From positions 1 through 45,513 of the IMG/VR virus record IMGVR_UViG_3300026519_000004: a DNA stretch of 45,513 nt, one strand, 5' to 3'. The DNA is from a virus. The notes under the pieces are model-generated. The model did no database searches and was not told the DNA's origin. It saw only the letters and a list, made by a program, of their open reading frames with translations. Within the stretch, counting starts at the first letter, position 1. Each line of letters begins with the position of its first letter. Below, piece by piece: positions 7,303 to 23,023 of the stretch. The translations under genes were made by a program, and so were the position numbers.

Positions 7303-7418
7303 AACAACTGCCCGAGCACCAACTCCGCGACGCACTCGTGATATGGCGGGTCTTCGCACTCGTGGGGTGGGTGTTGTTTATTGTGGCGGTGGTGATTGAT
7401 GTGCGAAGGGCAATGTAA
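7299..7418 (+). CDS. 39-aa single-pass membrane micro-protein candidate (below the ORF-track size cut-off)
   Basis: GTG 7299 overlaps the upstream stop (GTGA). Its TAA overlaps the next ATG (TAATG). Hand translation gives MKQLPEHQLRDALVIWRVFALVGWVLFIVAVVIDVRRAM, which has one clear hydrophobic helix. Confidence 0.4.
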   Translation: MKQLPEHQLRDALVIWRVFALVGWVLFIVAVVIDVRRAM

Positions 7419-8494
7419 TGAGCAATATCCAATGGACAGACGAGACCTGGAACCCGGTGGTGGGGTGTACGCGTGCTTCGGCGGGTTGCGACCACTGCTA
7501 CGCCGTGACCATGTCGCATCGGCTTGAGGCGATGGGTGCAGAGAGTTACGCGGGCCTGACTGTGCTCAACGACAAGGGGGACCGGCACTTCAACGGCGAG
7601 GTGCGGTGCGTCGAGGAAGCAATCGACAAGCCGCGTCATTGGCGGAAGCCGAGGCGTGTGTTCGTCAACTCGATGTCCGACCTGTTCCACCCGAAGGTTC
7701 CGTTTGAGTTCATCGACCAGGTGTTTGCGGTGATGGCACTGTGCCCGCAACACGCCTTCCAGGTGTTGACGAAGCGGCCGGAGCGCATGGCGGAGTATCT
7801 AAGCAGGCCATATATGCCGGGCTACATCTGTGACGCTGCCATATTGAGGCACGGCAAATACTTACACTCGAAAGAATACAAGGAACACTTTAGTGGGACA
7901 TATGCGAAACTCACTCCAGCGGTGTGGCCACTCCCCAATGTCTGGCTCGGCACGAGCGTGGAGAACCAGGCTGCGGCGGATGAGCGGATTCCGCACCTGC
8001 TGCGGTGTCCGGCGGCAGTGCGGTTCCTGAGTTGCGAGCCGCTGCTTGGGCCGATTGATGTATTCGCGCCGATCCGAGATGTGAAACTGCGAGACGCTGA
8101 GCCGAACCCCGGCGGAGACGGCAACTACTTACATTGGGTCATCGTCGGCGGTGAGTCCGGGTCAAAGGCGCGTGTGTGCGATATTGGTTGGATTCGCTCG
8201 GTTGTCAGCCAATGCAAGACCGCGGCGGTGCCGTGCTTTGTCAAGCAACTTGGAAGCCGACCTGTGTTGAGTCGCGGGCCGAACAGGCGGTGTACATGGG
8301 GGGTCGGGCCAGTAAACGCGGATGGCGAACCAATGTGTTGGCGTTGCGGATGTCAAGATTTTGGGGCAGTAGATGGCGGATCACCAATGTGCAATGGCTG
8401 TAATGCACCGCATGACCGACTCAAAAACAAGAAGGGCGGCGACCCCGCCGAGTGGCCTGAGGACTTGCGGGTGCGCGAGATGCCGGATGGATAA
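7418..8494 (+). CDS. Gp37/Gp68 family protein (DUF5131)
   Basis: Hallmark N-terminus 'IQWTDETWNPVVGCTRASAGCDHCYA', 'WLGTSVENQ', 'FLSCEPLLGPI', and C-terminal 'EWPEDLRVREMP'. A Cys-rich stretch (CWRCGC...CNGC) lies before the C-terminus. Confidence 0.8.
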   Translation: MSNIQWTDETWNPVVGCTRASAGCDHCYAVTMSHRLEAMGAESYAGLTVLNDKGDRHFNGEVRCVEEAIDKPRHWRKPRRVFVNSMSDLFHPKVPFEFIDQVFAVMALCPQHAFQVLTKRPERMAEYLSRPYMPGYICDAAILRHGKYLHSKEYKEHFSGTYAKLTPAVWPLPNVWLGTSVENQAAADERIPHLLRCPAAVRFLSCEPLLGPIDVFAPIRDVKLRDAEPNPGGDGNYLHWVIVGGESGSKARVCDIGWIRSVVSQCKTAAVPCFVKQLGSRPVLSRGPNRRCTWGVGPVNADGEPMCWRCGCQDFGAVDGGSPMCNGCNAPHDRLKNKKGGDPAEWPEDLRVREMPDG

Positions 8495-8555
8495 AGAACC
8501 TGCAGTACTGCAACGAACAGCCCACAAGCCGGGGTAGCCTGCTGCCCATGGCCTG

Positions 8556-10919
8556 TTGGTGTACACTACGGCCATGGGAACTTACCAAGATGGACAGGGA
8601 CATCTCGTTATAGACGGCCCGGGCGGCACTGGCAGGCTTGAGAACACTGGCCTTGTGGTTGCCGGGACCGAAGCCATGGCGTTTCTTGGCTTCGACTATA
8701 CGCCTGTCACGCCGACCGTCTCGGCGGCGGAGTTCGTGTGGCGATTAGGGACGAGCGGATCGCCGCCACTGGGATTCAAGAGAGATAATAACACCCAGCA
8801 CCGATTCGTTTGGAACACCTCGGTCGGCGTGACGGCTCGAACATTCTCGCTTACGCCGGGCAACAAATATCGGGTGGTTTTGGGGTGGAATAAAGACGGG
8901 ATCGACTCAGCAGGCAACTGGCCGGGCGCTACAGCCGGCGACCAATGTGCCGTGGCGGTCTATGACTTGGCGACCCGCACGCCTGTTGCAACTATGGTCT
9001 ATAGGAACCATGCGAATCTCGCGGGCACGCTCAATCCTGAGACTGGTTTTGAGTTCAGGTCTACGGGTGGTTTGCAGAAGTTCGGCATCAGCCACTTGTG
9101 GCTCTACTGGGGCTCCGAGGGATCACGGGCCATGGCGGACCTTTTTGGGCAGCGATTGCGGTCGCCGCTCAATCTGGGCATTATATTGAATCATTATTGG
9201 ATGCTCAACCTGCGATCAGATGCACCGCTCTCGGCCTCACCCGGGGCCGACGAGACATACGCACTGAAAGACCTTGGGTCTGGCGACCAGTCTGGCACCC
9301 CGGTCAAGCGCGACCTGTCATACACTGGGACAGCACCAACCTGGGACAGCACGCAAATACCCCAGACGGCCACCGAAGAGGAGATCACCTCGTACGACAT
9401 GACAGCCCCAGTACTGCGCAACGCCAGTACCCTCCGTACCTCGATGGATAAGGCGGCACGGGGCTGTATGAGGATTAAGGTCGGGGACTCGTTTGTCGGC
9501 CTCGCGCTGGGCCCACGCACAGGCGGCGCTGATATCGAGGCGATGATTGCCGCCGGTTATGAGTGTGTGGGGATGGCGGGCTATGGGCGGACTGGCGTCG
9601 GCAACACCCGCGCGGTCGGGGTGTCGATGGCCGCCGGGCTGGGCGCTGATGTCACGACCACATGGTATTGCAACGGTGCTCATGGCACCGGCGGGTATGG
9701 GACCAACCCCGGCGGGTCTGCAACCCGCTATGGCGTTTCGTGTGGCGGCATCATCGAGGTCAAAGGAACGGGTGCCGACCGCACCCTCGGGCCAAACAAC
9801 TCGATTATGACCTTGACGATCCAAGCGGCCCATGGGGCACAGGCGAAGTTCGCCACGGGCGACCTGCTCAAGATGCTCCCCATGGTCTACATCCCGAACA
9901 ACATCAACCGTTACACAGGAGTTTTGAGAATCGTCACCTCGGACGGCGCTGGCGTGGTCGAAACCTACGACTTTGACCTGAGCAATGCGGCAACCGGATT
10001 CCGCCAGTTCCCGTACGACGGCGCGAGCGCTGCGGATATCGAGGCAGGTGTCGGCGCGATCCGCGTCAGCGACCATATCAACGCGGCCAAGGATTATGTT
10101 TCGCTTGGCACGCAGGGCACGACGCGCACCATCGAGTACCGGCTCGTCGGCGGTCTTGCACTCAACGAGTTGGTGTGCATTGCGATCCCGCCGTGGTATA
10201 AATGCAACCCGGACGGAACCTTCAAGTTGGGCCCCGGCAAGTTCATCGTGGCCAACGACGCCGACAATTCGCGGGGGTGGAACGATGTCAAAGACTCACA
10301 ACTGCCGGTGACGGATGGCCAGAAGTATCGCACCGATGAGCAGTTGCAACGCTATTGGTCACTGTTGATCCCCGATTTTTCAATGGATGTTGTCGTCGAT
10401 ATTGATCTTAACACCGAAAACCGGTCGGAATCTGCGGCGATTGGCAACATGACTGACGCGGTGGCCCGGATTAGATCAACCCTCAATGCGATCGGGATCA
10501 AAGGCCGTCAGTCATGCGGTATATACGCCCAGTTCATGCACCAAATTGTCAAGACAACCGTGTGGCGCGACCGGGGCAAGTCCATTGACTACGCCAATGC
10601 CGCCGAAGCCGTGTCAGATGCCGACCCGGATAATGTGTGGTGCTACAACCGGCTCAGGGCCACCAAGGGCTTCCTGGGGTGTACCATGGAAGACGCCACG
10701 GCGTTCACTGAGTTGGGGCTCGGCGAGTCGATCGAGGCCGCAGCCGACGCTGATGTCTTTGCACTGCTCGGGACTGGCGATTGGTTAGACAGCGGGCCAC
10801 TTCATCTCAGTGATGATGGTGCGGCCCTTGGGTTCCAGGCCGACCTATACACCCGGGCGGCAACCTTCCCATATCTCGATGACGGCGGGCGATTGCGTGG
10901 CCGCGGGAGAACCAGATAA
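8556..10919 (+). CDS. Large hypothetical protein with an N-terminal LamG/concanavalin-like region and GDSL/SGNH-esterase-like motifs. Possible virion-associated glycan-binding or esterase protein.
   Basis: 787 aa. 'RIKVGDSFVGLALG' resembles SGNH block I (GDS). C-terminal 'LHLSDDGAALGFQADL' resembles block V. The start is uncertain (GTG 8556 or ATG 8574) and there is no clear RBS. Confidence 0.35.
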   Translation: MVYTTAMGTYQDGQGHLVIDGPGGTGRLENTGLVVAGTEAMAFLGFDYTPVTPTVSAAEFVWRLGTSGSPPLGFKRDNNTQHRFVWNTSVGVTARTFSLTPGNKYRVVLGWNKDGIDSAGNWPGATAGDQCAVAVYDLATRTPVATMVYRNHANLAGTLNPETGFEFRSTGGLQKFGISHLWLYWGSEGSRAMADLFGQRLRSPLNLGIILNHYWMLNLRSDAPLSASPGADETYALKDLGSGDQSGTPVKRDLSYTGTAPTWDSTQIPQTATEEEITSYDMTAPVLRNASTLRTSMDKAARGCMRIKVGDSFVGLALGPRTGGADIEAMIAAGYECVGMAGYGRTGVGNTRAVGVSMAAGLGADVTTTWYCNGAHGTGGYGTNPGGSATRYGVSCGGIIEVKGTGADRTLGPNNSIMTLTIQAAHGAQAKFATGDLLKMLPMVYIPNNINRYTGVLRIVTSDGAGVVETYDFDLSNAATGFRQFPYDGASAADIEAGVGAIRVSDHINAAKDYVSLGTQGTTRTIEYRLVGGLALNELVCIAIPPWYKCNPDGTFKLGPGKFIVANDADNSRGWNDVKDSQLPVTDGQKYRTDEQLQRYWSLLIPDFSMDVVVDIDLNTENRSESAAIGNMTDAVARIRSTLNAIGIKGRQSCGIYAQFMHQIVKTTVWRDRGKSIDYANAAEAVSDADPDNVWCYNRLRATKGFLGCTMEDATAFTELGLGESIEAAADADVFALLGTGDWLDSGPLHLSDDGAALGFQADLYTRAATFPYLDDGGRLRGRGRTR

Positions 10920-11158
10920 TGCCGCTTGTGGTCAGGCCAAATACCGAAGAGTGGATGTGCATAGGTGGGGCTGTGTTTGTCAAGGTCGTGGTCGAGAAAG
11001 ATGGCAAGCCGAAGGTCATATTCGACGCCGCATCGGACATCCCGATATATCGCCAGCACACCGCCAGTCGTCGTGGTGTCAACATTGACTGGCCGCCGAG
11101 CATCCTGGAAGACCCCGAGCGAATCCCGCCGCACCTGAGAAACGGAGTATCCACATAA
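10919..11158 (+). CDS. CsrA/RsmA-like RNA-binding protein candidate
   Basis: 79 aa. 'MPLVVRPNTEEWMCIGGAVFVKVVVEKDGKPKVIFDAASDIPIYRQH' aligns by eye to CsrA ('[46 protein letters not shown]'). TAATG overlaps on both sides. Confidence 0.45.
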   Translation: MPLVVRPNTEEWMCIGGAVFVKVVVEKDGKPKVIFDAASDIPIYRQHTASRRGVNIDWPPSILEDPERIPPHLRNGVST

Positions 11159-13011
11159 TGCTTGACACCAGCGCTGACAATATGTTGCAGGAGTTCCAGG
11201 CAGGTGAGGCCGATCGGGACCAACACTTGCCGTACTACGAGCGGATGATCTCGGCCTATCACGGGGAGGGGTTCAAGTCGATTACGACGAGCGAACGGAT
11301 GCTGGCTAATCACTTCTTCGAGTACATCACCCTCATCAACCCACGCATCATCCAAGACAACCCGAAACTCCTGGTCTCGACTGACAGCACGGACGAGAAC
11401 GATAGGCTTGTGTCTAAGGCGCTCAAACACGCGGGCCAGAAGTGGATCGTCAATACGAAACTCGTGGATCATCTCGTGCGTGCAGCCATGGACTTTTCGT
11501 TCGCGTGGTGCGTGGCGTATGTCGAGCACCGCAAGGGCAAGAAAGATGAGTACGAGTACCGCAACCCCAAAGCCCCGGGGTGGCCTGTTGTCGAGCGAGT
11601 GCCTGTTCGACGGTTCTTTATGGACCCCGGTACGCTTTGCTTTGACGAGGCGCGATGGATGGGGCACCTGATCGTCCGCGACAAGGAAGACCTGCTCAAA
11701 GAGGCGAAAGAACACCCGGAGCGCGGGTGGAACGCCAGTGCGATTGAGGCGCTTGGTGACGACATCGGCATCGACCGCCTTAAAGAGCGCCGATCCCACG
11801 ATATTCCCACACGCAAGGAAGTTGTGTTGTTCCAGTTCTGGGTGCGCGACGCACAGCCGGACCCGGATTTGGGCATCGACGACGGGTTCTTCGGCGGGTT
11901 GTACACGATCGCCATTGATCGCCCACTGGACGGCAAGCAGGAGGACGAGAGGGGCGTTTCGGTCCGGGACCCAATCCCCTTCTGGGGCCCGCCAGAAGGC
12001 CCGTATGTGATGGGCGGCGCGTACATGGGGTCAACGGACGACCCGTGGCCCCTGAGTCCTCTCGCGGCCGTCTATTCGCAGGTCGAGGAGTTCAATGACC
12101 AAGTCACGGCAGCGGCCAACGCCAGCCGACGATACAAGCGGATTGTCTTCGTCGATGACGCGGACATCCAAACCGCCGAGGCGGTTATTGGCAGCCCAGA
12201 CGGGTATGTCGTGCCGATCCCGGGTCTCAAAGACGCAACAGGTGGAAGGAATATCATTGAAGTCGAGATCGGCGGGGTCAGCGAGTCGCAGATTCAGATG
12301 ATTCAATTGTGGCAGATGGTTCTTGAGCGAACATCTGGCATCGACTCAGCCCAGCGTGGTGAGGTCGAGGGGCGCGGAACAGCAACCGAGGTTGCGGTGG
12401 CGGACAAGGTTACAGACACGCGGATCAGCCGGCTCAAGATCGAGTTTCAGAAATACACGATCGGAGTGCTCACACGCGCCCTGTGGTACATCTATCACGA
12501 CGATGAGATTGAGATACCACTGAGCCCAGAGGCAGCACAGGAGATAGGCCTCGACATGCAGAATCCGGTGTTCAAGGGCGGCGACCCTGACCCGAGCAGT
12601 AAGGCCTCGTTCTGGAACCTCGACCTTTCGATTGAGACGATGAGCATGGAACGCACGACCGAGGCACTCAACAGTCGCCGCATTTTGCAGGCCACAAACC
12701 TCATTGCTTCGATGGCCCCGGTCATCCGCCAGTTCCCCGAGGTCGATTGGAAGTCGATTCTCAGCCGGATGGGAGACTCACTCAATATCCCCGACTTCGA
12801 CGAGGTCGTGGACTACGAGATGGCGTCGCAGTTGTTGGGCGTCGAGATGGCAGCGTCATCAAAGCCAGACGCGCCACAGGCGTCGTACTCCGGCGACTCT
12901 GGGGGCTCTGCGGCACCCACGCCCGCCCTACAGTCTGACCCGGCGATACAGCCATTTCAGAGCGTGATGGCCGAGAGTGCGGGTAGTCTTGGACAGGGGT
13001 CACGGCTATAG
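11158..13011 (+). CDS. Portal protein (putative)
   Basis: 617 aa, a portal-typical size, in the head module. Has a 'GRGTATE' segment and a low-complexity C-terminal tail. The call rests on position and composition. Confidence 0.55.
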   Translation: MLDTSADNMLQEFQAGEADRDQHLPYYERMISAYHGEGFKSITTSERMLANHFFEYITLINPRIIQDNPKLLVSTDSTDENDRLVSKALKHAGQKWIVNTKLVDHLVRAAMDFSFAWCVAYVEHRKGKKDEYEYRNPKAPGWPVVERVPVRRFFMDPGTLCFDEARWMGHLIVRDKEDLLKEAKEHPERGWNASAIEALGDDIGIDRLKERRSHDIPTRKEVVLFQFWVRDAQPDPDLGIDDGFFGGLYTIAIDRPLDGKQEDERGVSVRDPIPFWGPPEGPYVMGGAYMGSTDDPWPLSPLAAVYSQVEEFNDQVTAAANASRRYKRIVFVDDADIQTAEAVIGSPDGYVVPIPGLKDATGGRNIIEVEIGGVSESQIQMIQLWQMVLERTSGIDSAQRGEVEGRGTATEVAVADKVTDTRISRLKIEFQKYTIGVLTRALWYIYHDDEIEIPLSPEAAQEIGLDMQNPVFKGGDPDPSSKASFWNLDLSIETMSMERTTEALNSRRILQATNLIASMAPVIRQFPEVDWKSILSRMGDSLNIPDFDEVVDYEMASQLLGVEMAASSKPDAPQASYSGDSGGSAAPTPALQSDPAIQPFQSVMAESAGSLGQGSRL

Positions 13012-13018
13012 TTGGCCG

Positions 13019-13666
13019 ATGACCTACCTTGTTTCATTAGACGAATCAGTTGTGTTGGTTGGCAATGGCCCGAGCGCCACGGCCAAACTGGACGGCGACC
13101 TGATTGACTCGTTTGGTTGCGTCGTGCGGTTCAACCTGTTCGAGAGAGAGGGATACGAGCGGTTTGTCGGCCTACGCACAGATATTTGGGTCATCAACGG
13201 CAATGCCCAAGTCCATCGCCACCCAGTTCGGGCTGTGTCGATCAAGCGTGGCGTTGTCGTGGCCAACCCACATGTGTTTGGGCAGGGCGTTGATGGTGAC
13301 CCGTATTTCCATGTCTCCTCACGGCGGCAGGAGGCTATCCAGTGTGCCAAGAATCTGTGCTGCAAGACTCGTGGGCGTCTGGCCTTTGACATCGTGCCAG
13401 ATGAACTGTGGCACAGTGTGGCGATCCGGATGCAACAACTCGCCAAGACCAAACGCATTGGCCGACCGAGCACAGGGGCGATCATGGCCGAGTGGCTTGG
13501 CACGACCGACAGGCCGGTCCACCTCACTGGCTTCGACTGCTTTACCGGAGGCGTGAAAGAACACCACTACTTCCCGAGCACGATGCAGCCCGGGCACCAC
13601 CGGGAACAGTGGGAAAGTCTGTTTATCAACAGTCTCATCGACGAGGGAAGGGCAGTGATGTTATGA
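13019..13666 (+). CDS. Sialyltransferase-like glycosyltransferase (GT42 Cst-II-like / GT29-type sialyl motifs)
   Basis: Motifs occur in the correct order:
- L-like: 'VVLVGNGPSATAKLDGDLIDSFGCVVRFN...VGLRTD'
- S-like: 'RPSTGAIMAEWLGTTDRPVHLTGFD'
- III-like: 'HHYF'
- VS-like: 'HREQWE' (H-x4-E)
The start is ATG 13019; an upstream ATG at 12977 would overlap the portal gene. Confidence 0.55.
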   Translation: MTYLVSLDESVVLVGNGPSATAKLDGDLIDSFGCVVRFNLFEREGYERFVGLRTDIWVINGNAQVHRHPVRAVSIKRGVVVANPHVFGQGVDGDPYFHVSSRRQEAIQCAKNLCCKTRGRLAFDIVPDELWHSVAIRMQQLAKTKRIGRPSTGAIMAEWLGTTDRPVHLTGFDCFTGGVKEHHYFPSTMQPGHHREQWESLFINSLIDEGRAVML

Positions 13667-14043
13667 CCGAAGAACAGATATACCTGACAACAGAGCCGAT
13701 CATCCCGGACCGCAATGTTGTCGTGGCGACAAGGCCGGAAGAACTTGAAGTTCCGCAACAGGTGGATATGGAACACGCTTTATCGCCGACAAAACCATCA
13801 CCCGGCGGCCTAATCAGCATCCGCGTCCGGTCATGGGCGGTCAACCCGGAGACTGGCCTGACCCGCATCGAGCAACTTCTCGATGAAGCAAACAAGTTGG
13901 TTTTGTTGAAAATAATGGGTGGCAGCGCGCTCACGCAGCGCATCCGTCGCCTTGAACGCCTCAACGCACTCTGGACAGCCTTTGCTATCGTCGGATGGGT
14001 CTTGTATATCATCTCAGTCACACTTGCCTACAGCCTCTTGTGA
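13663..14043 (+). CDS. Hypothetical tail-anchored membrane protein (126 aa)
   Basis: ATGA overlap. C-terminal hydrophobic helix 'LWTAFAIVGWVLYIISVTLAYSLL'. Confidence 0.5.
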   Translation: MTEEQIYLTTEPIIPDRNVVVATRPEELEVPQQVDMEHALSPTKPSPGGLISIRVRSWAVNPETGLTRIEQLLDEANKLVLLKIMGGSALTQRIRRLERLNALWTAFAIVGWVLYIISVTLAYSLL

Positions 14044-14066
14044 GGCAGGCACAATATGGAGATATC

Positions 14067-14570
14067 ATGGAATACACACGCAAGGTAGATGACATGGTTC
14101 GCAGGTGCGCACGCATCATCCACGAGGTCAATAATGACTTCCGGGTGTCTATCGGCGAGGAACCGAAGCCCGTGAGCGCCGAGTGCATTAACACTTTGGC
14201 CACGGCGGTCAAGGCACAGTGGTTCAAGCCTGTTGGCCCACGGGAATCACATGAACGCTGGTTGGCCGCGAAAGAGGCTGCTGGATGGGAGTACGGCGAG
14301 GTCGAGGACGAGCAGGCTAAGGCCCACCCGTGCATCCTGTCGTACGACGCACTCCCGGAGCGTCAGCGCATCAAGGATATATTGTTCACGAGCATCGTCG
14401 GCGCGTTCTTCCCTCATGCCAAAGTTGAGCCCGAGCCACTTACGCCGGCCTGCATTGCAGTCTCCGGCGAGCCTCCGGCAGATCAGGACGAGGCGAATCG
14501 GGAGGCCGCGATCGAGGATGACATCGAGAGGGAGAACAATGAGCGAGAATCCCCCCCTGAAACTGAGTGA
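14067..14570 (+). CDS. RyR-domain protein
   Basis: 'HERWLAAKEAAGWEYGEVEDEQAKAHPCILSYDALPERQRIKD' fits the RyR repeat pattern (HE.W...K...GW.YG...D...K.HP.L.PY..LPE..K..D). Acidic C-terminal tail. ATG follows TGGAG. Confidence 0.6.
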   Translation: MEYTRKVDDMVRRCARIIHEVNNDFRVSIGEEPKPVSAECINTLATAVKAQWFKPVGPRESHERWLAAKEAAGWEYGEVEDEQAKAHPCILSYDALPERQRIKDILFTSIVGAFFPHAKVEPEPLTPACIAVSGEPPADQDEANREAAIEDDIERENNERESPPETE

Positions 14571-15009
14571 GGCGAGCAAGGAAAGCAACTCGTTCGATCA
14601 TGTCAACATCATGCGGTTCAAGTTGCCTTCCGATGCGTGCCCGCCGTTTGCCGCCGCTGGTGACCACTGGGCCGCGTACCTCGTGGGCATCCCGCTGGGG
14701 TGTGCCTCGGTGTACCGGATTCCCGGGGCACATAAAGACCGCAAGTTCGTGCTCCACTGGATCGAGGTCAAAGAGGAGACTCGGCGCAAGGGCATTGGCA
14801 TGATGCTCCTTGATGCGATCGACCTGTACTATGGCGACAGACTCCGTGTTTTGTTCACGAACGACGGAGGTAATGACCTTGCCATTGCGTTCGTGGCCAA
14901 ACACGGGGCACGGGATAACTGGACCTGTTGCGACGACGACGGGGAGCACTACCCGATCTTCGAGTGGTGTGCCAAGCGGAACAGACTGTTGTCGGGGGAG
15001 AAGGCATGA
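14539..15009 (+). CDS. GNAT-family N-acetyltransferase candidate
   Basis: 156 aa. Motif-A-like 'WIEVKEETRRKGIGMMLLDAI'. ATG 14539 follows GGGAGAA. Confidence 0.5.
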   Translation: MSENPPLKLSEASKESNSFDHVNIMRFKLPSDACPPFAAAGDHWAAYLVGIPLGCASVYRIPGAHKDRKFVLHWIEVKEETRRKGIGMMLLDAIDLYYGDRLRVLFTNDGGNDLAIAFVAKHGARDNWTCCDDDGEHYPIFEWCAKRNRLLSGEKA

Positions 15010-15377
15010 CGGGCATGAAGTATGGCCCAGGGGCTTCATACGCACCACCAAGGCCAGAGAAGTCCGATTTTGACCGGCTGCTTGAGGGCACACTCTCAAC
15101 CACCAAGTCTGGGGGCGATGAGCCGCCAGAGGTGCCCGGCAAGCGTGAGCACATGGAGATGGTCACGCGGAGTGCGTCGCGGATTAGTCGGGCTTACATG
15201 GCAAGCCGGTTTGTGTCCGACCCGCCAGAGACGATTGTCATGTTGGTCCCGCAGGAGGTCTATACATACTCTGAGATGCGGGAGATGGAAGACCGGGTGA
15301 GCCGTGCGGGGCGTTACGGCTCTCGTCCAGTGTTCCAGATGAGATTATCGTGCCGCCAAGAGGCAAGAGGCGGATAG
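15006..15377 (+). CDS. Hypothetical protein (123 aa)
   Basis: ATGA overlap with GGAGAAGG upstream. No family recognised. Confidence 0.45.
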   Translation: MTGMKYGPGASYAPPRPEKSDFDRLLEGTLSTTKSGGDEPPEVPGKREHMEMVTRSASRISRAYMASRFVSDPPETIVMLVPQEVYTYSEMREMEDRVSRAGRYGSRPVFQMRLSCRQEARGG

Positions 15378-15410
15378 TCGCGGGGCCCGCTGTGTCTGTG
15401 GAGATGCACA

Positions 15411-15806
15411 TTGCCAGATCGGGCCGTTTGTGGCAATATGAAGCAACTGAACTTTTATTTCTTTCGCGTCGTGTGGGGCCGAGGACAATCATCGCCTTGT
15501 CTCCATAGCCACCGATCTTCGGCGATAATCATCCGTACGCGGGCTGTGACCGAGTTGTACGCCCGGGATCATCCTCGACCGGGCAGCATCGGCAATGCCG
15601 GCCCTTGGTGGTCGTTTGTCAGGAGGCGGGCGTTCGTGCCGTATTTCATGCACGCCGCGCGGGCCCACAGAATCTATCACTATAAGCCATATTGGTTCGT
15701 GGCTGTTTCCGGTCCGGCGTGGCGCAGCCGATTCCATTGGTGGCGCAGTGAGGCTGGCGAGTGGGTTGAAACAAGAGAGCCAGATTACGACGAAGGGAAG
15801 TTATGA
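15411..15806 (+). CDS. Hypothetical basic, Trp/Arg-rich protein (131 aa). Coding status uncertain.
   Basis: TTG 15411 has GGAGA 6 nt upstream, and the stop forms an ATGA overlap with the GT32 gene. The composition is unusual and no family is recognised. Confidence 0.3.
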   Translation: MPDRAVCGNMKQLNFYFFRVVWGRGQSSPCLHSHRSSAIIIRTRAVTELYARDHPRPGSIGNAGPWWSFVRRRAFVPYFMHAARAHRIYHYKPYWFVAVSGPAWRSRFHWWRSEAGEWVETREPDYDEGKL

Positions 15807-16483
15807 CGCTGATTGTACATCAGGCGTGGTTCAACGAGGTACCACCACTTATTGCTGACTGTATGTCATCTTGGGACAAGTGGCCCGGCCTTGAAATGCG
15901 CCGGTATGGCGTTCAGGATGCGGTTGACATTCTTGGCATAGATGTTGTGGACCATTGCTTTACAATAAGGCTTGGGCCAAGAGCAGCGGCAGCATCATGG
16001 AGAAATAGGTACAGGCTCCTGTCTGATCTTTTCCGGTACAAACTCTTGGCCAGTGTCGGTGGCTTGTGGGCTGACTGTGATACAACAGCCATAAAAGACC
16101 CGCTCGCGCTTGGACTACAGAATGATGCTGGGCTCGTCCTGTTCAACCCGAAATCACACCATGGGAAAGGGTTGAAGACAGTGTGCAATGGGCTTATGTA
16201 CTCTGGACTCGGGCAGGAACCGAGGGTTATTGATAAAATATACGAAAAAGCCATGAGCAGGGCCATGGAGGCTGAGTGCGTCCCAAGGACCGTTGGGTGG
16301 CTTACAGGGCCGCATATGCTTATTGATAACTTTGCAAGGCTCGCATCAAGGATCATCAACCACCCATATGTATCAAAACCAGATGCAAGTTCCACGCCAG
16401 AAACCATATTGCATATACGGTACGGGCGGCACGATGACGCGAAAGAGGTAACTGGTCCGATTGGATGGGGTCCAAAAACATGA
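15803..16483 (+). CDS. GT32-type glycosyltransferase (DXD sugar-binding region, Gly_transf_sug-like)
   Basis: 'IVHQAWFNEVPP...SW' plus 'SDLFRYKLLASVGGLWADCD' match the recalled PF04488 pattern (IHQ.W...P; SD..RY..L...GG.Y.D.D). GC is lower than in the neighbours. Confidence 0.6.
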   Translation: MTLIVHQAWFNEVPPLIADCMSSWDKWPGLEMRRYGVQDAVDILGIDVVDHCFTIRLGPRAAAASWRNRYRLLSDLFRYKLLASVGGLWADCDTTAIKDPLALGLQNDAGLVLFNPKSHHGKGLKTVCNGLMYSGLGQEPRVIDKIYEKAMSRAMEAECVPRTVGWLTGPHMLIDNFARLASRIINHPYVSKPDASSTPETILHIRYGRHDDAKEVTGPIGWGPKT

Positions 16484-17121
16484 ATAAACTCGCCGTCATC
16501 TATGGGCTCCCAAGGGGGGGAACAAGTCTCGTCGCAGGCATCCTCCACCATGCCGGTTTCGACATGGGCGACATCCGGGGCCGCGTCAAGTCATACCCGA
16601 ACGGAGAGTCGTATCCGACCTACGAGGATCGCGGGTATCTCCCGCACATACACCAGCACACCAAGAACAAGAAGGTCAAGGAACTTGTACTAGAGGACGC
16701 GGTTGCGCTCCGGCGGTATGTCAACAGGCGACTGATCCGTGCGAATGGTCGTCCGGCTGGTGTGAAGATGCCGGGGATGCACCTGTGGAGCGCCGTTCCG
16801 GATTGGGTGAACATGCCGGTCGTGACCATCCGGGTTGTGCGACCGCTCGCCGATTCGGTCGCTTCGAGCGTGAGAAAGAACCCGGGGACACTAGCGGCGC
16901 AGTGGGAGTCCAATGGCCTTTCCATGCTCGATTCGATGGACAAGTTCGAGAAGCAGCGACCACCACTTGTGACCATTGACTTCTATGGTTTCCTCGACGG
17001 GATGAGAATGGAGCCAGATGGCACGATCTGCTCGTTGCTGAAACGACTTGAGCCAGAGACGGGCGTGCCGCTCGGCGGGTGGAACATCAAGGCGGCCAAA
17101 GAAAGCGTGGTGTTACGATGA
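16480..17121 (+). CDS. Sulfotransferase-family protein
   Basis: 5'-PSB-like loop 'IYGLPRGGTSLVAGIL' and 3'-PB-like 'VRPLADSVASS' (R-x3-D-x3-S). ATGA overlap. Confidence 0.55.
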   Translation: MNKLAVIYGLPRGGTSLVAGILHHAGFDMGDIRGRVKSYPNGESYPTYEDRGYLPHIHQHTKNKKVKELVLEDAVALRRYVNRRLIRANGRPAGVKMPGMHLWSAVPDWVNMPVVTIRVVRPLADSVASSVRKNPGTLAAQWESNGLSMLDSMDKFEKQRPPLVTIDFYGFLDGMRMEPDGTICSLLKRLEPETGVPLGGWNIKAAKESVVLR

Positions 17122-17669
17122 ATCTCCCACCCCGAAGCAAGAAACAAGACCACCTCTGGAGAACACAAGGGCTCGATCCGTACGCCACACACATGCCCGT
17201 GCTTGCCCATGCCTTCTCGAATGGTCGCCGTGACGACGGTGCGGCGATCTTTGAGTTTGGTTGTGGCTTCTATTCAACGCCGATGCTTGCTGGGTTGGCG
17301 AAGGCTCGCGGCATCCCGTTTTATTGCTATGAGTCAAACCCAGAGTGGGCTAATGCAGTCACGCGGGCCTGCCCGGCGGACATCGCACTTGTGATTGACC
17401 GGACGATGGAACTCGGCAAAGCCCGCGTGGGCATGGATGAGATTAGATCAATGGGTATCGACATCGAGGTGTTTATTGATAACGGGCCGACAATGGGGCA
17501 CCGAAAAAGACCGCTCGATCTCGCGGTTGAGTTTGGAGCGAAGTTGATTGTCGCTCACGACTCCAACAATCTTGCACGGCCATGGATCAGTGGTGCTATG
17601 GCCGTATTGGGAGCGCCAAAGGTGTACAGTGAACTCACCCCGGCGACCGCCGTGTGGGACTTCCGATGA
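17118..17669 (+). CDS. Class I SAM-dependent methyltransferase-like protein
   Basis: Motif I-like 'IFEFGCGFYSTPML', 'VFIDNGP' and 'KLIVAHD' resemble the O-methyltransferase family 3 layout. ATGA overlap. Confidence 0.45.
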   Translation: MNLPPRSKKQDHLWRTQGLDPYATHMPVLAHAFSNGRRDDGAAIFEFGCGFYSTPMLAGLAKARGIPFYCYESNPEWANAVTRACPADIALVIDRTMELGKARVGMDEIRSMGIDIEVFIDNGPTMGHRKRPLDLAVEFGAKLIVAHDSNNLARPWISGAMAVLGAPKVYSELTPATAVWDFR

Positions 17670-17923
17670 TCTGGAACACTCTCTTTGTTGGCGGGCCGGC
17701 TGATGGCAAGACCGAGGAGGATGTCAAACAGTTGCACCGCCAGCGGACCGTTGTGTGCTGTGACGACACGGGCAAGGTCGTGAGCGCCCTGTATGTGCTC
17801 GAAGACGACGACAGGCGACCGAAGATCGTCGGCCCGGACACCATCGACGACCCTGAGAACGGCGTACCATTCGAGAGCGAGCACCGGTACTTATTCGTCG
17901 GGATCGAAAGGAAGACGACATGA
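17666..17923 (+). CDS. Hypothetical protein (85 aa)
   Basis: ATGA overlaps at both ends. Confidence 0.45.
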   Translation: MIWNTLFVGGPADGKTEEDVKQLHRQRTVVCCDDTGKVVSALYVLEDDDRRPKIVGPDTIDDPENGVPFESEHRYLFVGIERKTT

Positions 17924-18159
17924 TCGACCTCCAATCAGCGATGAAACCATATGGGCGTATCGACCTGTTCACAGACGACCCGTCGAGCGGGCTTATGGAT
18001 GACGAGTTGAAGGCCGAGTTGGAATCTCGCAGAGCCGGCGTCATCAGACGATACCGAGAACTTGGCTATGTCGCCGAGGTTTCAATCTTCGGTTTTGAGC
18101 AGCCCACAACAAGGGTGCGTGAGTATTTCGCCGTTGTTCAACTGGTTGCAGAGGTATAA
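17920..18159 (+). CDS. Hypothetical protein (79 aa)
   Basis: ATGA overlap with the upstream ORF. Confidence 0.45.
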   Translation: MIDLQSAMKPYGRIDLFTDDPSSGLMDDELKAELESRRAGVIRRYRELGYVAEVSIFGFEQPTTRVREYFAVVQLVAEV

Positions 18160-18172
18160 TAGTGGTGGTCTG

Positions 18173-18487
18173 ATGCCTGAATACCCATTCAACGATGTTG
18201 AGACAGGTGAGAGTGTCACGATCTTCATGCCGATGGCCGACGCGGTTTCAATCGGCGATGAGATCACGCACAAGGGCCGGCGTCTTGTCCGGGTGATGTC
18301 AGATGCCGTGCTGGGTTCTCGTGGTTTCAAGCCACATCTGAGCCTCCAACTGCCGTTGAATGATAAACTGGCCCCCCGCTGTAACGAGCACGGGGAGGTG
18401 GTGTTCCACAACCAGAAAGAGATCAATGAGTATGTTGATCGAAACAACGACACTCCCGGGCGTGGTAAACTGACTTGGGACGAATGA
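18173..18487 (+). CDS. Hypothetical protein (104 aa)
   Basis: Internal ATG 18173 of track ORF 18062..18487. The upstream part of that ORF would overlap the previous gene. Confidence 0.45.
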   Translation: MPEYPFNDVETGESVTIFMPMADAVSIGDEITHKGRRLVRVMSDAVLGSRGFKPHLSLQLPLNDKLAPRCNEHGEVVFHNQKEINEYVDRNNDTPGRGKLTWDE

Positions 18488-18500
18488 AAAGGAGATAGGC

Positions 18501-19475
<975 letters not shown>

Positions 19476-19614: not shown

Positions 19615-20802
19615 ATGGCCACCGCAGAAATCTTTGCCACATTGATGGAGTCCACCCCCTTCACCTATGTCAGTTCCCCCATGGACATCGTCAACGATGC
19701 CATCCGGCGGAACCAGTTGATGCCGCGATTCCTTCGGGGGCGAGGAAAGTCTGAGATTGTCCACACCGGCCCGAAGGTCAAGGACCGGATGTTGCTCGAT
19801 GTCACAAGCAACTTCCGCTCGTACGGGCCGCATGATGTCCACAACTACTCAAATCCCCAGACGGGCGATGAGTGGGAGAATGGATGGGCCCGTTATACCG
19901 AGGAGATGGTGTGGGAGGAAGGTGAAATCCTCCACAACTTTGTGCCCGGGCTGAGCCGCGATGCGGTCAAGACGGTGCTCAAGGATGTCAAGAACCAGAA
20001 GGAGCAGCGCCTTATCACCTCGATCGTCGAGGGCCTTGATGACCTGCTTTGGGCCCAGCCTAATGTCGCGACGATGGAGAATCCGGCGAAGGGTCAGACC
20101 GCTGATGCCATGAGCATCCCGGCGCTCATCAACGAGTTCACTAATGGCCTGTACCCGGCAATCTCCGGCGTGACCGCCGCGTGGACGACCAAGCAGAACA
20201 TTGACCCGACGACCAAGCCGGCGTGGGACAATCAGCGCATCTCGTACAACCCAAACACGCTGGCCAGTTCGACACTTGGCCTTTTTGCGTCGTTCCGCAA
20301 GATGCGCCGCCGCCTGCGCTTCAAGCCCCCGACGATCGGACAGGAGCACTTTGAGGCCGACAATTACACGCGGATGTTTCTCGCGTGCTCGGAAGACGGA
20401 GTAACTCAGTACGAGAATATGTTGCAGGAGGTTGGTGACAAACTTCGTGGCAATGTGATGAATCCGCGAGACTCCTCGTATGGTGAGGTGACCTTCCACG
20501 GTCACATGCTGGAGGAAGTCGAGGCCCTGCGCGATGCCGAGTTGTATCTCAACGCGGCTGGCAATGGCCTTGTTGGTGAGTCAGCGGCGACCGTCGCTAA
20601 TGCCGGTCCCCGGTATTACTGGCTCAATACCTATTATTTGATGCTGTTGATGCACAAGGACAAGTGGCTTGAGAAGCGCAAGCCGAAAGAGCCGGACCGC
20701 CAGATCGAAGTGTGGGTCCAGCCGGTCGTCATGTGGTTGCAGATTTGTGCATCCTCACTCCGCCGGCAGGGCATCGTATATCCAGTCGTCGCGTCCGCGT
20801 GA
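19615..20802 (+). CDS. Major capsid protein (putative)
   Basis: 395 aa. GGGAG RBS 8 nt upstream. Positioned between the scaffold-like and decoration-like genes. Preceded by a 139-nt leader. Confidence 0.55.
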   Translation: MATAEIFATLMESTPFTYVSSPMDIVNDAIRRNQLMPRFLRGRGKSEIVHTGPKVKDRMLLDVTSNFRSYGPHDVHNYSNPQTGDEWENGWARYTEEMVWEEGEILHNFVPGLSRDAVKTVLKDVKNQKEQRLITSIVEGLDDLLWAQPNVATMENPAKGQTADAMSIPALINEFTNGLYPAISGVTAAWTTKQNIDPTTKPAWDNQRISYNPNTLASSTLGLFASFRKMRRRLRFKPPTIGQEHFEADNYTRMFLACSEDGVTQYENMLQEVGDKLRGNVMNPRDSSYGEVTFHGHMLEEVEALRDAELYLNAAGNGLVGESAATVANAGPRYYWLNTYYLMLLMHKDKWLEKRKPKEPDRQIEVWVQPVVMWLQICASSLRRQGIVYPVVASA

Positions 20803-20841: not shown

Positions 20842-21372
20842 ATGTTTAGAACCCCTATTCGTGGACCGATCGGCTTCAAGCCCGTACCAGACACCGCGCC
20901 GTGCAAGAATCTGACCGGGTCCGCCGTTGTTGTTGGCCAACTGGTCGCCCTTGATATCGCTGGCGTTGAGGCGGAAGTAGCCAACTCCGGCGAGGGTGGG
21001 CTTGCGTTCGTGACCCCTGAGAGTTCAACCTCTCGTGGCTCTCGATATGGTGCCGCTGTTGACTCTGGATCTGCGGCTTCGTGGGCACCACGATATGGCA
21101 TCTTCGGCATCGCCCTTGAGGCGGCGGCTGATAATGCTGAGTTCGAGGTCTTGATAGCCGGCGAAGTCGATGCGCTCGTGTCGAAGGGAACGGGTAATGT
21201 CGCCGAAGGTGATCCACTGGTTGCCGGTTCGTCCAATGGCGAACTCGACGCCGACACCTCGACGGGTATGAAGATTCTGGGCATTGCGATTGAGGCGTTG
21301 ACCGGGCCATCTACAGCAGCCCTTGGCCGCGTATTGTTCAACGGATGGAGTGGCTTCGGGTCGTCAGCATAA
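20842..21372 (+). CDS. Capsid decoration/cement protein candidate (DUF2190-like)
   Basis: 'GIALEAAADNAEFEVLIAGEVDALV...GDPLVAGSSNGELD...KILGIAIEAL...GRVLFNG' resembles the recalled DUF2190 pattern. AGGAG RBS. Confidence 0.45.
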   Translation: MFRTPIRGPIGFKPVPDTAPCKNLTGSAVVVGQLVALDIAGVEAEVANSGEGGLAFVTPESSTSRGSRYGAAVDSGSAASWAPRYGIFGIALEAAADNAEFEVLIAGEVDALVSKGTGNVAEGDPLVAGSSNGELDADTSTGMKILGIAIEALTGPSTAALGRVLFNGWSGFGSSA

Positions 21373-21402: not shown

Positions 21403-22137
21403 GTGACAATCACAGCCGCACAGGCAGACACCTTTGTCGCCAAGGTTGGTGGCAGCGTGCCCGAGATGTTCGGGACTGACGCGATCATCAACATGGCTGG
21501 TCGCCAGATGGTCCAGTTGGCTCGCTGGAACTGGCTTCGTGGCCCCGAGGCGCTTGTCGATCTGGTCAAAGATCAGGATTTCATCACACTTCCAACCGAT
21601 TTCGGTCGGATGGCCGCAATCGAGGTGACCAGCGACTCGGGGTACACGACGACGCTCGTGGATATCGGCACAATCGCCGAATACCGGAACTCGAACTACA
21701 ACCAGTCTTCGGGCTACGCCCTCGCCATGACCTACGGACCGGGGGCGAGCCCTGACTATGTGCCGAGCGTCCCGAGGCTCGAAATCTGGCCGACGCCCAG
21801 CGAAACCAAGGTTGGCGGTCTCAGACTGTTCTACTACCGCAAGTGGGTTGAGGTCTCTGGTGCCAATGGATCGTCGGTCGTCCTGAATATGCCGTCATTC
21901 ATGGAGATGGTGTTCTGGCGGTTGTTGCGCGAGATGACGCTCGCCTTCGAGGAGGACGACATGGCCTCGCTCGAACAGCGTGTAGACTCTATTGCAAACT
22001 CCGGCCTGGTAGCGATGGCCCGGCGTGAGGACATGATGCAGCCATTCCCGGTGCGAGGGGCCCCAGTCATCAATGGCGTGGGTATGCGTGCCCGGAGGGA
22101 CTTGTTTGTGTATCCTGATTCGGTCCCGGCACCGTAA
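21403..22137 (+). CDS. Head-to-tail adaptor / tail tubular A-like protein (assigned by position only)
   Basis: 244 aa. GTG start after AGGAGGG. Lies between the head genes and the nozzle-like gene, as in T7-type gene order. Confidence 0.3.
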   Translation: MTITAAQADTFVAKVGGSVPEMFGTDAIINMAGRQMVQLARWNWLRGPEALVDLVKDQDFITLPTDFGRMAAIEVTSDSGYTTTLVDIGTIAEYRNSNYNQSSGYALAMTYGPGASPDYVPSVPRLEIWPTPSETKVGGLRLFYYRKWVEVSGANGSSVVLNMPSFMEMVFWRLLREMTLAFEEDDMASLEQRVDSIANSGLVAMARREDMMQPFPVRGAPVINGVGMRARRDLFVYPDSVPAP

Positions 22138-22147
22138 CGGAGGCACA

Positions 22148-23023
22148 ATGGAATACAACTCGCTCATCTACATCGGCGAACTTTCGCACAAACCTTCTCT
22201 CGCGGTGGCCCAGCGGTACGCCTCGGTCTATGGGTTGCGGCTCCGCACGATCCCCCGCAATGAGTTCTTGTACAACTGTGATGGCCTGCTCAGGGACGCG
22301 GCGTTCGCCGTGATATGGAATGGCGAGCAGGGGAACACCGGAGCGTGCGCGGACTATTGCCGGGCTAAGCGGGTTCCCCATTGCTTCCTCGAACTCGGGC
22401 TCCTCCCCCAGCACAAGACCTACCTGATCGACAGACGCGGCTTCTGTGGCCGCTCGTCGCTGTGTGGCGACCTTGGGTGGGTCACGCCCACTGACATGGC
22501 CCAGATGCGCCGCGAGCGTGAGGCGCTGCTTAGACGCCACAGGCGAGCACCAGACGGATCGGTGCTCGTGCCGCTCCAAGTGCCCAACGACACACAAGTC
22601 TTCTACCACTGGTCTGGGCGGACCATGCAAGACCTTGTCCAGCAAGTCGAGTCGATGTATCCGGGCCGCGAAATCGTGTTTCGACCGCACCCAAAGATCA
22701 CAGACAACTCTCGCCTGATCCTCGGCCCACGATCCAGCCTCCGGGCCGAGGGTTTGTTTCTCGACCAAGCAGCCCGTGCTTCTGTGGTCGTCGGGGTCAC
22801 CTCGACCTGTCTGTACGAGGCTTCCCTGCTCGGCGTTCCGACAGTTGCTCTCGGTGACCACCCACTCCGGGCCCACCGGGACCACGAACGGGTGCTGGCG
22901 GGGCTCTTGGCCCACCGATTCGACTCCAATGGTTCCCCATGGAACATCATGGAGCGGTTCTCTGTCAGGCCACTGGGCGCTCTACCGCTTTCGGAAGGGG
23001 GAAATGTTGCCGAAGCCGGTTGA
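22148..23023 (+). CDS. Capsule_synth (KpsS/KpsC-like) glycosyltransferase candidate
   Basis: 'VLVPLQVPNDTQV', 'IVFRPHPK' and 'VVGVTSTCLYEASLLGVPTVALG' fit the recalled KpsS/KpsC beta-Kdo-transferase family pattern (LQV.DS...; K.HP; S..GfEAll.G.pV). ATG 22148 follows GGAGG. Confidence 0.55.
   Translation: MEYNSLIYIGELSHKPSLAVAQRYASVYGLRLRTIPRNEFLYNCDGLLRDAAFAVIWNGEQGNTGACADYCRAKRVPHCFLELGLLPQHKTYLIDRRGFCGRSSLCGDLGWVTPTDMAQMRREREALLRRHRRAPDGSVLVPLQVPNDTQVFYHWSGRTMQDLVQQVESMYPGREIVFRPHPKITDNSRLILGPRSSLRAEGLFLDQAARASVVVGVTSTCLYEASLLGVPTVALGDHPLRAHRDHERVLAGLLAHRFDSNGSPWNIMERFSVRPLGALPLSEGGNVAEAG

Follow-up and report, generated by a model that had tools for sequence, protein, structure and literature searches.

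A glycosyltransferase, sulfotransferase and methyltransferase cassette among the predicted head genes of an uncultivated tailed phage

The window analysed here is the whole 45,513-nucleotide stretch of the viral record IMGVR_UViG_3300026519_000004 (IMG/VR, positions 1–45,513), and the subject of this report is an island of predicted glycan-modifying genes lying between the probable portal gene and the putative scaffold gene (13,012–18,500), together with a further glycosyltransferase gene at 22148. With confidence standing at about even, the cassette is proposed to build an acidic sulfated glycan on a virion surface protein from within a late head operon. A preliminary description, made from the letters of the window, had portrayed these genes as a toolkit for modifying glycans; every enzyme assignment in it survived tests by hidden Markov models and structure comparison, with differing strength and, for the gene at 22148, at superfamily level only. 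Phage-encoded glycan modification is already known; this combination of enzymes in a head operon is not described in the literature searched.

The island comprises eleven genes, all on the plus strand, for which the Logan gene calls and the tiling made here agree; with one doubtful open reading frame (ORF), o6, they are numbered o1 to o12, where thirteen ORFs had been counted previously. All seven of the ATGA overlaps listed before are present (13663, 15006, 15803, 16480, 17118, 17666 and 17920), and the tightly coupled block between portal and scaffold genes is confirmed, the assignments of these flanks themselves being weak. A scan for promoters and terminators inside the island gave nothing above shuffled expectation and no convincing terminator-like site, and the layout is consistent with co-transcription of the island with the virion genes. 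The term "inserted", used earlier for this block, does not fit its core: o1, o7, o8 and o10–o12 are common to the sole close relative, a contig handled here as L002 (L003 is a second copy), and only o2–o6 and o9 are variable, so the island core is ancestral to the lineage. The relative keeps the same gene order at 40–75% amino-acid identity, namely a 768-amino-acid (aa) protein, a small protein, the portal, an extra 85-aa gene, the GT29 gene, o7, o8, o10, o11, o12, scaffold, capsid, decoration, adaptor, the KpsC-like gene and a 1323-aa protein. This contig (GCA_003695295.1, RFIJ01000502.1) was deposited inside a "Bacteroidetes bacterium" metagenome-assembled genome, yet it is a phage contig, and that bin should not by itself be read as a host assignment.

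The enzymes of the island were mostly recognised through their families, because searches of PDB with the single sequences of o1, o8 and o9 were uninformative and family profiles were required. The gene o1 (13019–13666) encodes a soluble 215-aa glycosyltransferase of the GT29 (sialyltransferase-family) type, and the earlier call of a sialyltransferase-like enzyme is strongly borne out: it scores 46.1 bits on PF00777 (Glyco_transf_29; cut-off 23), and the profile of its family, for which just eight homologues were found among 5.8 billion clustered proteins, matches pig ST3Gal-I (PDB 2wnb) at E = 7e-16 over residues 10–190. The 8-sequence profile further matches ST6GalNAc2, ST6Gal1 and ST8Sia3 and, weakly, the GT42 enzyme CstII. 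None of the four sialylmotifs is missing: L (VLVGNGPS..VVRFN), S (PSTG..GFDCF), III (HHYF) and VS (H194-REQW-E199), and G15, N16, G17, S19, S151, G153, H183, Y184 and H194 are invariant across the eight sequences. Like the GT29 sialyltransferases, o1 thus carries the VS motif with its catalytic histidine, and the profile alignment spans nearly the whole catalytic domain; unlike them, it is a minimal, phage-encoded domain without a type II membrane anchor and without the conserved cysteines of the L and S motifs. Among GenBank phages, o1 has one match, at 26% identity, in a 484-kb uncultured phage. The known members of GT29 use ulosonic or nonulosonic acids activated with cytidine monophosphate (CMP). 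The first report of GT29 sequences from bacteria dates from 2018 (Petit et al.; PMC5811610), and plant members of the family are proposed transferases of 3-deoxy-D-manno-octulosonic acid (Kdo; PMC11288761).

The sulfotransferase gene o8 (16480–17121; 213 aa) is weak as a single sequence, at 13.3 bits on PF13469 (Sulfotransfer_3; cut-off 27, E = 0.098, marginal), and clear as a family, which upholds the earlier assignment. An exhaustive HMMER search gathered 131 representatives; PF13469 is matched at E < 0.01 by 19 of the 63 members that were aligned (best 8e-9), and the family profile matches Stf1 of Mycobacterium tuberculosis (PDB 2zq5) at E = 1.6e-9, as well as SULT1A1, CurM-ST, Stf0 and the tyrosylprotein sulfotransferase TPST. 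The AlphaFold2 (AF2) model has a pLDDT of 92.7, and its ten best PDB matches by Foldseek are Stf1 and TPST1/2 (E = 5e-5 to 4e-4, TMq about 0.5), with P-loop kinases ranking behind them. The 5'-phosphosulfate-binding (5'-PSB) motif GLPRGGTS stands at residues 9–16 without a Walker-A lysine, the 3'-phosphate-binding (3'-PB) pair is R121-x7-S129, the residues G14, T15, S16 and R121 are at least 90% conserved in the 63 sequences, and Glu49 and Lys96 are invariant. On these profile and model grounds, o8 is clearly predicted to be a sulfotransferase of the type that uses 3'-phosphoadenosine-5'-phosphosulfate (PAPS). It shares the 5'-PSB and R...S 3'-PB motifs, the fold and profile homology with Stf1, Stf0, TPST and the sulfotransferases already annotated in phages; it differs from them in its small size, in forming a family of its own of about 130 representatives, in its location in a head operon, and in that a methyltransferase and a GT32-like glycosyltransferase are closely coupled or fused to it. 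Genes of the "sulfotransferase family" are described as auxiliary metabolic genes (AMGs) of marine phages (e.g., Synechococcus and OM43 phages) with unclear biological function (PMC10580990), and structural relatives of phage sulfotransferases are present in BFVD. The earlier suggestion that no sulfotransferase-containing set is known inside a phage morphogenesis operon is qualified by the annotation of phage sulfotransferases before now; it is the combined set for which no literature precedent was found.

Immediately upstream, o7 (15803–16483; 226 aa) is a predicted GT-A glycosyltransferase with a DXD motif, probably of the GT32/Gly_transf_sug/toxin-like group. The GT32 assignment made previously falls just under the Pfam cut-off (PF04488, 22.4 bits against 23; PF05704, E = 5e-4) and is backed, at the level of a GT32-like group, by profile matches to Legionella SetA (E = 7e-5), yeast Och1 (E = 0.039) and TcnA (E = 0.5); the homologue in contig L005 reaches 29.0 bits on PF04488. 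The protein carries the SD..RY....GG.Y.D.D signature with its DXD element (LSDLFRYKLLASVGGLWADCD); the motif SDLFRYKLL..GGLWADCD is invariant, with D75, R78, Y79, G86, G87, D91 and D93 invariant in three sequences, and o7 is conserved in L002, L019 and L005. As an observation in its own right, o7 has a GC content of 0.51 and a GC at third codon positions (GC3) of 0.51, against a GC3 of about 0.7 in its neighbours, though it is part of the conserved core; it may be a more recent replacement or of different origin.

Downstream of the sulfotransferase gene, o9 (17118–17669; 183 aa) is a protein of class-I S-adenosylmethionine (SAM)-methyltransferase fold, a call made with moderate confidence from a predicted structure. 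The AF2 model, built from two sequences (pLDDT 72, pTM 0.75), shows beta-alpha alternation and a final beta-hairpin, its top Foldseek matches are almost all SAM methyltransferases (METTL16, KsgA, TrmR, COMT; E = 3e-5 to 1e-3), and a glycine-rich motif I reads EFGCGFYST. No sequence match was obtained in Pfam, NCBIfam or PDB. Membership in Methyltransf_24 was tried and rejected, since neither BLASTP against the protein P0008 nor hhalign against four domains was significant (probability 0.9%). The grounds for calling o9 a methyltransferase are therefore its predicted fold and its gene neighbourhood: o9 homologues adjoin o8-like genes in L019 and L005, and Methyltransf_24 genes fill the same slot in L020 and L023. 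The SAM-methyltransferase proposed earlier at 17118 thus stands at fold level and by position, while its membership in a sequence family does not.

A further glycosyltransferase gene lies outside the island, downstream of the adaptor gene. The plus-strand gene at 22148–23023 encodes a 291-aa glycosyltransferase of the KpsC/KpsS/WbbB superfamily (beta-Kdo-transferase-like), at which level the KpsS/KpsC likeness noticed before is supported. The protein itself reaches 15.5 bits on PF05159 (cut-off 20) and E = 4e-4 on TIGR04396; two viral homologues, in L027 and L031, lie above the PF05159 cut-off (22.5 and 22.3 bits), and a 5-sequence profile matches KpsC (6mgd) at E = 1.4e-6 and WbbB at E = 1.5e-5. 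Within the family, Q144-x3-D148 (QxxxD) and H181-P182 (HP) are invariant. The protein is 52% identical to its homologue at the same position in L002 and has one weak match among GenBank phages. It resembles KpsC/KpsS (GT107) and WbbB (GT99) in the invariant QxxxD and HP motifs and in profile homology; it differs from KpsC and WbbB in being a single short domain, placed between the adaptor gene and the gene of a presumed 1323-aa virion protein with no Kps export genes nearby. At 4977–6723 of L027, a viral contig of GC 0.36, the homologue (45% identical) stands beside a gene for a RuvB-like ATPase, a setting from which it follows that the KpsC-like gene moves between very different phages and contexts.

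The linkage of these genes was sought in other contigs, as the preliminary description had advised, and was found there: the order is kept in L002, and parts of it recur in L019, L005, L020 and L023. Overall, o7 and o8, with or without o9, GNAT and GT29, adjoin scaffold or capsid genes in four other phage contigs. L019 carries a partial GNAT gene followed by o7, o8, o9 and o10; L005 carries o7, an 89-aa gene, o9, o8, a 90-aa gene, an o12-like gene and a scaffold-like gene; and in L023 and L024 an o8-like gene is followed by a Methyltransf_24 gene, i.e., the order of o8 and o9. L020 comes from an unrelated phage, one whose capsid gene is Gp13-like, and its cassette (5994–8627) lies in the same genomic slot, between portal/MuF and scaffold/capsid genes, on the strand opposite to the flanking genes; it consists of a helix-turn-helix (HTH) gene, a GT4 gene, an 85-aa gene, a Methyltransf_24 gene and an o8-like gene. 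Natural fusions within the o8 family point in the same direction: P0078 joins an o8-like domain to a following o7-like domain, P0128 has the two in the reverse order, and P0142 combines an o9-like N-terminal motif with an o8-like domain. Taken together, the shared neighbourhoods, the coupled translation and the fusions indicate that the o7 glycosyltransferase, o8 and o9 work on the same product, and they argue for a sugar, not a tyrosine, as the substrate of o8; sequence comparison thus supports o7, o8 and o9 as one predicted functional unit that recurs across several phage lineages, a module of glycosyltransferase, sulfotransferase and methyltransferase that has not been described before.

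GT29-like genes have a related company of their own. A scan of genomes with a 5-sequence profile placed them mainly in Verrucomicrobiota and Planctomycetota. On the chromosome of Stieleria magnilauensis (NZ_CP036432.1; L013, 9962–12877), a GT29-like gene is followed by a gene for a protein with SIS and CBS domains and then by a Sulfotransfer_3 gene; upstream lie, in order, GT4, methyltransferase, GT2 and two unassigned genes, and downstream there are further genes and a GT4. The SIS+CBS protein is taken here, from its domain architecture, to be a KpsF-type arabinose-5-phosphate isomerase, and arabinose-5-phosphate isomerase provides the entry step to Kdo. This planctomycete chromosomal polysaccharide cluster is a bacterial counterpart of the phage toolkit. 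In Verrucomicrobia, multidomain proteins unite Methyltransf_24 with GT29, sometimes with a GT9 heptosyltransferase-like domain in addition (fusions at L007 630–3065, L010 1955–4363 and L011 9395–10573), and in one of them (L009, 31–1638) an o9-like domain is joined through a middle domain to GT29; such proteins tie methyltransferase-type domains to GT29 in the manner of a Rosetta stone. P0008 is a further fusion of Methyltransf_24 and GT29. Among viruses, 18 IMG/VR contigs with GT29-like genes were collected, whose pooled neighbours include methyltransferases, GT8, Sulfotransfer_2, CTP_transf_3 (CMP-sugar synthetase type) and NeuB, as well as giant proteins with Ig-like or beta-propeller domains; within 8 kb of the GT29-like gene, none of the 18 has a member of the o7, o8, o9 or 22148 families. 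From the Stieleria cluster, the fusions and the IMG/VR neighbours, the association of GT29, sulfotransferase and methyltransferase is seen to recur independently of this phage. The sugar involved is likely to be an ulosonic acid activated with CMP, either Kdo or a nonulosonic acid, and because plant GT29 enzymes are proposed Kdo transferases and a KpsF-type gene stands beside the Stieleria homologue, the predicted donor of o1 may be CMP-Kdo or another ulosonic acid instead of sialic acid. In two of the viral contigs (L039, 4579–12248; L040, 3521–12299), the GT29-like gene is flanked by two proteins of about 1000 aa, from which the DUF5122 beta-propeller, ASH, Ig-like and SprB matches in the pooled set most probably stem, and which may be glycosylated fibre or adhesin substrates.

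The remaining genes of the island are accessory in character. The gene o2 (13663–14043; 126 aa), specific to the window and absent from L002, has a single C-terminal hydrophobic helix (Kyte-Doolittle maximum 2.04 at residues 108–126), the only transmembrane-like segment among the island proteins on that scale, and is the tail-anchored membrane protein noted earlier. Two other previous calls lie above their Pfam cut-offs: o3 (14067–14570; 167 aa, acidic, specific to the window) is a RyR-domain protein (PF02026, 40.1 bits against 27.4; phrog_5154, E = 5e-26), and o4 (14539–15009; 156 aa) is a GNAT acetyltransferase (PF00583, 28.4 bits against 20.7) with the acetyl-CoA motif RRKGIG (R/Q-x-x-G-x-G/A); a partial homologue of o4 lies 5' of the o7-like gene in L019. 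The window-specific o5 (15006–15377; 123 aa) overlaps o4 through ATGA, and neither o2 nor o5 has a family match in Pfam, PHROGs or NCBIfam. The 425-nt stretch that follows (15378–15802) holds o6 (15411–15806), whose frame is open across the gap, ends in the ATGA at 15803 and would encode a basic product rich in Arg, Trp and His; it is missing from the gene calls of the assembly, and its GC at the three codon positions (0.55/0.54/0.62) resembles that of non-coding DNA and departs from the values of about 0.6/0.42/0.7 in its neighbours. No Rfam family or tRNA was found in this stretch, its folding energy is ordinary (z-score -0.26), and it is either an odd basic protein or a spacer. Three small conserved genes close the island: o10 (17666–17923; 85 aa; 45% identical to the L002 and 36% to the L019 homologue at the same position), o11 (17920–18159; 79 aa; 43% identical to the L002 homologue) and o12 (18173–18487; 104 aa; 61% identical in L002), the last lying immediately 5' of the scaffold gene, with a homologue at the same place in L005.

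The flanking head genes, likewise on the plus strand, are assigned with unequal strength. The 617-aa product of 11158–13011 is weakly identified as a probable portal protein: PF23899 (SU10_portal) is matched at E = 3.5e-4, below the cut-off, and phrog_1216 at E = 1e-3, its size and synteny fit, it is 68% identical to the L002 homologue at the same position, and it has neither a PDB match by profile nor a match among GenBank phages. The putative scaffold protein (18501–19475; 324 aa, net charge -27) is equally a weak assignment, made from its position and its acidic, Ala/Glu/Pro-rich composition; it has no family match in Pfam or PHROGs and is 44% identical to its L002 homologue. Beyond it follow the major capsid protein (19615–20802; phrog_9953 major head protein, E = 3e-6; 75% identical in L002), a head decoration or cement protein (20842–21372; PF09956, 27.9 bits against a cut-off of 24; phrog_122) and an SU10-type head-tail adaptor (21403–22137; PF24175, E = 2.7e-12). 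Directly 5' of the portal region stands a gene for a 781-aa protein (8574–10919) with no Pfam or PHROGs family match and 57% identity in L002, and between it and the portal gene a 79-aa protein is encoded (10919–11158; CsrA-like PF02599 at E = 0.003, below the cut-off; 45% identity in L002).

An exact 127-bp direct repeat at the ends of the window (1–127 and 45387–45513) reflects an overlap in the assembly of a molecule that is circular or has redundant termini, and the window is therefore a complete, circularly assembled phage genome of 45,386 bp; it is matched by a 45,527-nt JGI/ENA contig and by a Logan contig from SRR7968108. GC is about 0.59 genome-wide and 0.55–0.58 within the island. 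The large terminase (2426–3895) and a recombination and replication block at 38–42 kb (HTH, SMC-like ATPase, PDDEXK, RecT) were recognised, and the genome belongs to a tailed phage, so far uncultivated, whose adaptor is of SU10 type. No relative was detected among 50,697 GenBank phage records, where neither megablast of an 11.9-kb region nor tblastn with the capsid, portal, adaptor and o8 proteins gave a match; single-protein searches of IMG/VR with the capsid protein and with o1 returned no relatives, and a capsid-profile scan of JGI metagenomes returned one match, a 2.4-kb fragment. No integrase or other lysogeny gene was recognised in the scanned genes, the scan not being exhaustive, and the phage looks lytic. 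Nor were recognisable genes for nucleotide-sugar or PAPS synthesis found elsewhere in the genome. Two large ORFs without match, of 1323 aa (23004–26975) and 2974 aa (29075–37999, plus strand, zero Pfam matches), presumably encode giant virion, tail or ejected proteins; the second includes a stretch of low GC (0.46–0.49) at about 32–34 kb. Outside the island there are also a DUF5131 gene (7418–8494; phage Gp37/Gp68 family, E = 1.7e-85) and a DUF932 gene (391–1449; E = 8e-40).

How such a set would operate can be outlined from the gene content, on which either virion glycosylation or late remodelling of the envelope, as proposed in the preliminary description, is a reasonable and plausible reading. 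The products of o1, o4, o7, o8, o9 and 22148 would be soluble enzymes that act in the cytoplasm while the head proteins accumulate. As the genome holds no recognisable genes for donor synthesis, the donors would be drawn from host pools, namely CMP-Kdo or another CMP-sugar, a UDP- or GDP-hexose, PAPS, SAM and acetyl-CoA. The product would be a short acidic glycan, sulfated, methylated and perhaps acetylated, attached to the capsid, a decoration protein or a tail component, and it would give the particle a charged glycan coat, by analogy with the mycobacteriophage cassettes of O-methyltransferase and glycosyltransferases that glycosylate capsid and tail tube. Virion proteins are favoured over the host envelope as acceptor because the cassette stands repeatedly among head genes and would be expressed late in a seemingly lytic phage, and the capsid and decoration proteins are candidate acceptors. 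A fuller version, in which the virion carries a sulfated and methylated Kdo or nonulosonic-acid glycan on capsid or decoration proteins, built by the phage from host CMP-sugar and PAPS with o7, o8 and o9 as a portable module, is put forward only tentatively.

Several points weigh against virion glycosylation. The acceptor is a candidate only, and the portal and scaffold assignments that define the position of the island are weak; the C-termini of the capsid and decoration proteins show no obvious tail rich in Ser/Thr, nor any site that L002 shares. In bacteria, soluble glycosyltransferases use lipid-linked intermediates at the inner face of the membrane as substrates too, so an envelope target is still compatible with soluble enzymes, and the tail anchor of o2 hints at a membrane-associated step. 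The cassette of L020, with its own HTH gene, is a separate, moron-like transcription unit, and the 22148 family in L027 adjoins a RuvB-like gene, not structural genes. We know of no measurements of donor or acceptor specificity for any prokaryotic GT29 enzyme, and the assignment of o9 comes from a two-sequence model (pLDDT 72) with a Methyltransf_24 alignment that was not significant.

Remodelling of the host envelope is the main alternative, regarded as possible but less probable than a virion acceptor. Here the enzymes would modify lipid-linked or nascent lipopolysaccharide, capsule or exopolysaccharide of the host late in infection, and Kdo-like, sulfated or methylated residues would mask or change the receptor, stopping superinfection or the adsorption of progeny to debris. 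The usual task of KpsC, KpsS and WbbB homologues is to make capsule linkers or O-antigen caps, which they assemble on lipid carriers (PMC9587256); relatives of o1 in bacteria are found in polysaccharide clusters of the chromosome, in the company of GT2/GT4, KpsF-type, sulfotransferase and GT9 genes; and bacteria of the Planctomycetes–Verrucomicrobia–Chlamydiae group, in which most of the bacterial GT29-like genes were found, make sulfated exopolymers (PMC7356697). The tail-anchored o2 and the separate, self-regulated unit of L020 would also suit this explanation. However, the island lacks any integral-membrane protein of the GtrA/B or Oac type, be it a glycosyltransferase, a flippase or an acyltransferase, the non-exhaustive scan recognised no lysogeny gene, late expression leaves a lytic phage little time to remodel a surface, and the cassette is found repeatedly among head genes and not near lysis, tailspike or attachment-site genes. 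That the genes are unlinked accessory genes (morons or AMGs) in a permissive site of the head operon, each modifying metabolites with no common glycan product, is unlikely: the variation of o2–o6 and o9 between relatives, the atypically low GC3 of o7, the obscure function of the sulfotransferase AMGs already described in phages and the unrelated contexts of the 22148 family speak for it, but the co-occurrence of o7, o8 and o9 across at least five contigs, the ATGA translational coupling, the domain fusions and the independently recurring association of GT29, sulfotransferase and methyltransferase argue for one pathway.

Two further explanations concern other targets. In one of them, o8 would be a tyrosine sulfotransferase of the TPST/RaxST kind acting on a virion or host protein, with the glycosyltransferases serving a separate purpose; TPST1/2 are indeed among its best structural matches (E about 5e-5, TMq 0.52–0.57), and the invariant Glu49 and Lys96 could serve as a TPST-like base and lysine. 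This is somewhat less probable still, as the carbohydrate/lipid sulfotransferase Stf1 is an equal match in structure and a better one in sequence, o8-like domains are fused to o7-like domains in both orders, and o8-like genes always lie beside a glycosyltransferase and/or a methyltransferase gene, which points to a sugar acceptor. According to the other, modified bases in the phage DNA would be decorated before packaging, a task shared by the glycosyltransferases with the P-loop enzyme and the methyltransferase. Phage DNA glycosylation and P-loop kinases of 5-hydroxymethyldeoxyuridine are established, the fold of o8 is common to nucleotide kinases, and expression of the island would coincide with packaging. 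Such DNA hypermodification is set aside as very improbable on the motifs of o8 (a sulfotransferase 3'-PB motif and no Walker-A lysine), the missing base-modification genes (neither a hydroxymethylase nor a thymidylate-synthase-like gene turned up in the genome), the enzyme families, and the location of the island away from the replication module at 38–42 kb; to our knowledge, no GT29, GT32 or KpsC-type enzyme acts on DNA.

The proposed glycosylation of a virion protein may be compared with systems already characterised. According to two papers (PMC11600133 and PMC11256854, citing Freeman et al. 2023), Corndog-like mycobacteriophages of cluster O encode an O-methyltransferase and three tandem glycosyltransferases, and the enzymes of cluster O and of Che8 (cluster F1) glycosylate capsid and tail-tube proteins produced in the cytoplasm. 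The statement made earlier that such genes adjoin the capsid genes needs correction, as the glycosyltransferase genes of cluster F1 are found towards the 3' end of the genome (PMC11256854). The island shares with those cassettes the combination of soluble phage glycosyltransferases and a methyltransferase using host donors; it differs in its GT29-like, GT32-like and KpsC/WbbB-like enzymes, in the sulfotransferase and GNAT, in its position between portal and scaffold genes and in a likely Gram-negative host, and for the island virion glycosylation is a prediction. Serotype-converting modules (gtrABC, Oac) are likewise phage genes that alter a surface glycan from host precursors, but they consist of integral-membrane proteins expressed from prophages near the attachment site, whereas here the enzymes are soluble, the operon is a late head operon, and there is no multi-transmembrane protein in the island and no integrase recognised in the scanned genes. 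Among the giant viruses, chlorovirus PBCV-1 has a multi-domain enzyme with two glycosyltransferase domains and a methyltransferase domain. These machineries resemble the island in a virus-encoded, host-independent choice of capsid glycan that includes sugar methylation, and differ from it in their eukaryotic hosts, in the enzyme families and in having no known sulfotransferase in the characterised capsid pathway. Literature searches for phage sulfotransferases linked to virions or glycosyltransferases, and for Glyco_transf_29 in phages, returned nothing relevant.

If the product of the cassette does decorate virions, virion glycosylation would extend to Gram-negative-type hosts, to acidic sugars and to sulfation. 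No earlier case of a sulfated glycan on a bacteriophage virion would then precede this one, a polyanionic coat of glycosaminoglycan- or mucin-like character that could affect how the particle is charged, how it adheres to sulfated or mucus-like matrices, how it interacts with receptors and how it is recognised by immune systems. A biological role would thereby be assigned for the first time to a prokaryotic or viral GT29 enzyme. The o7–o8–o9 module and its natural fusions offer compact enzymes for sulfated and methylated sugars, and the island provides a testable setting for the GT29 enzymes of bacteria and viruses and for the sulfotransferase AMGs of phages.

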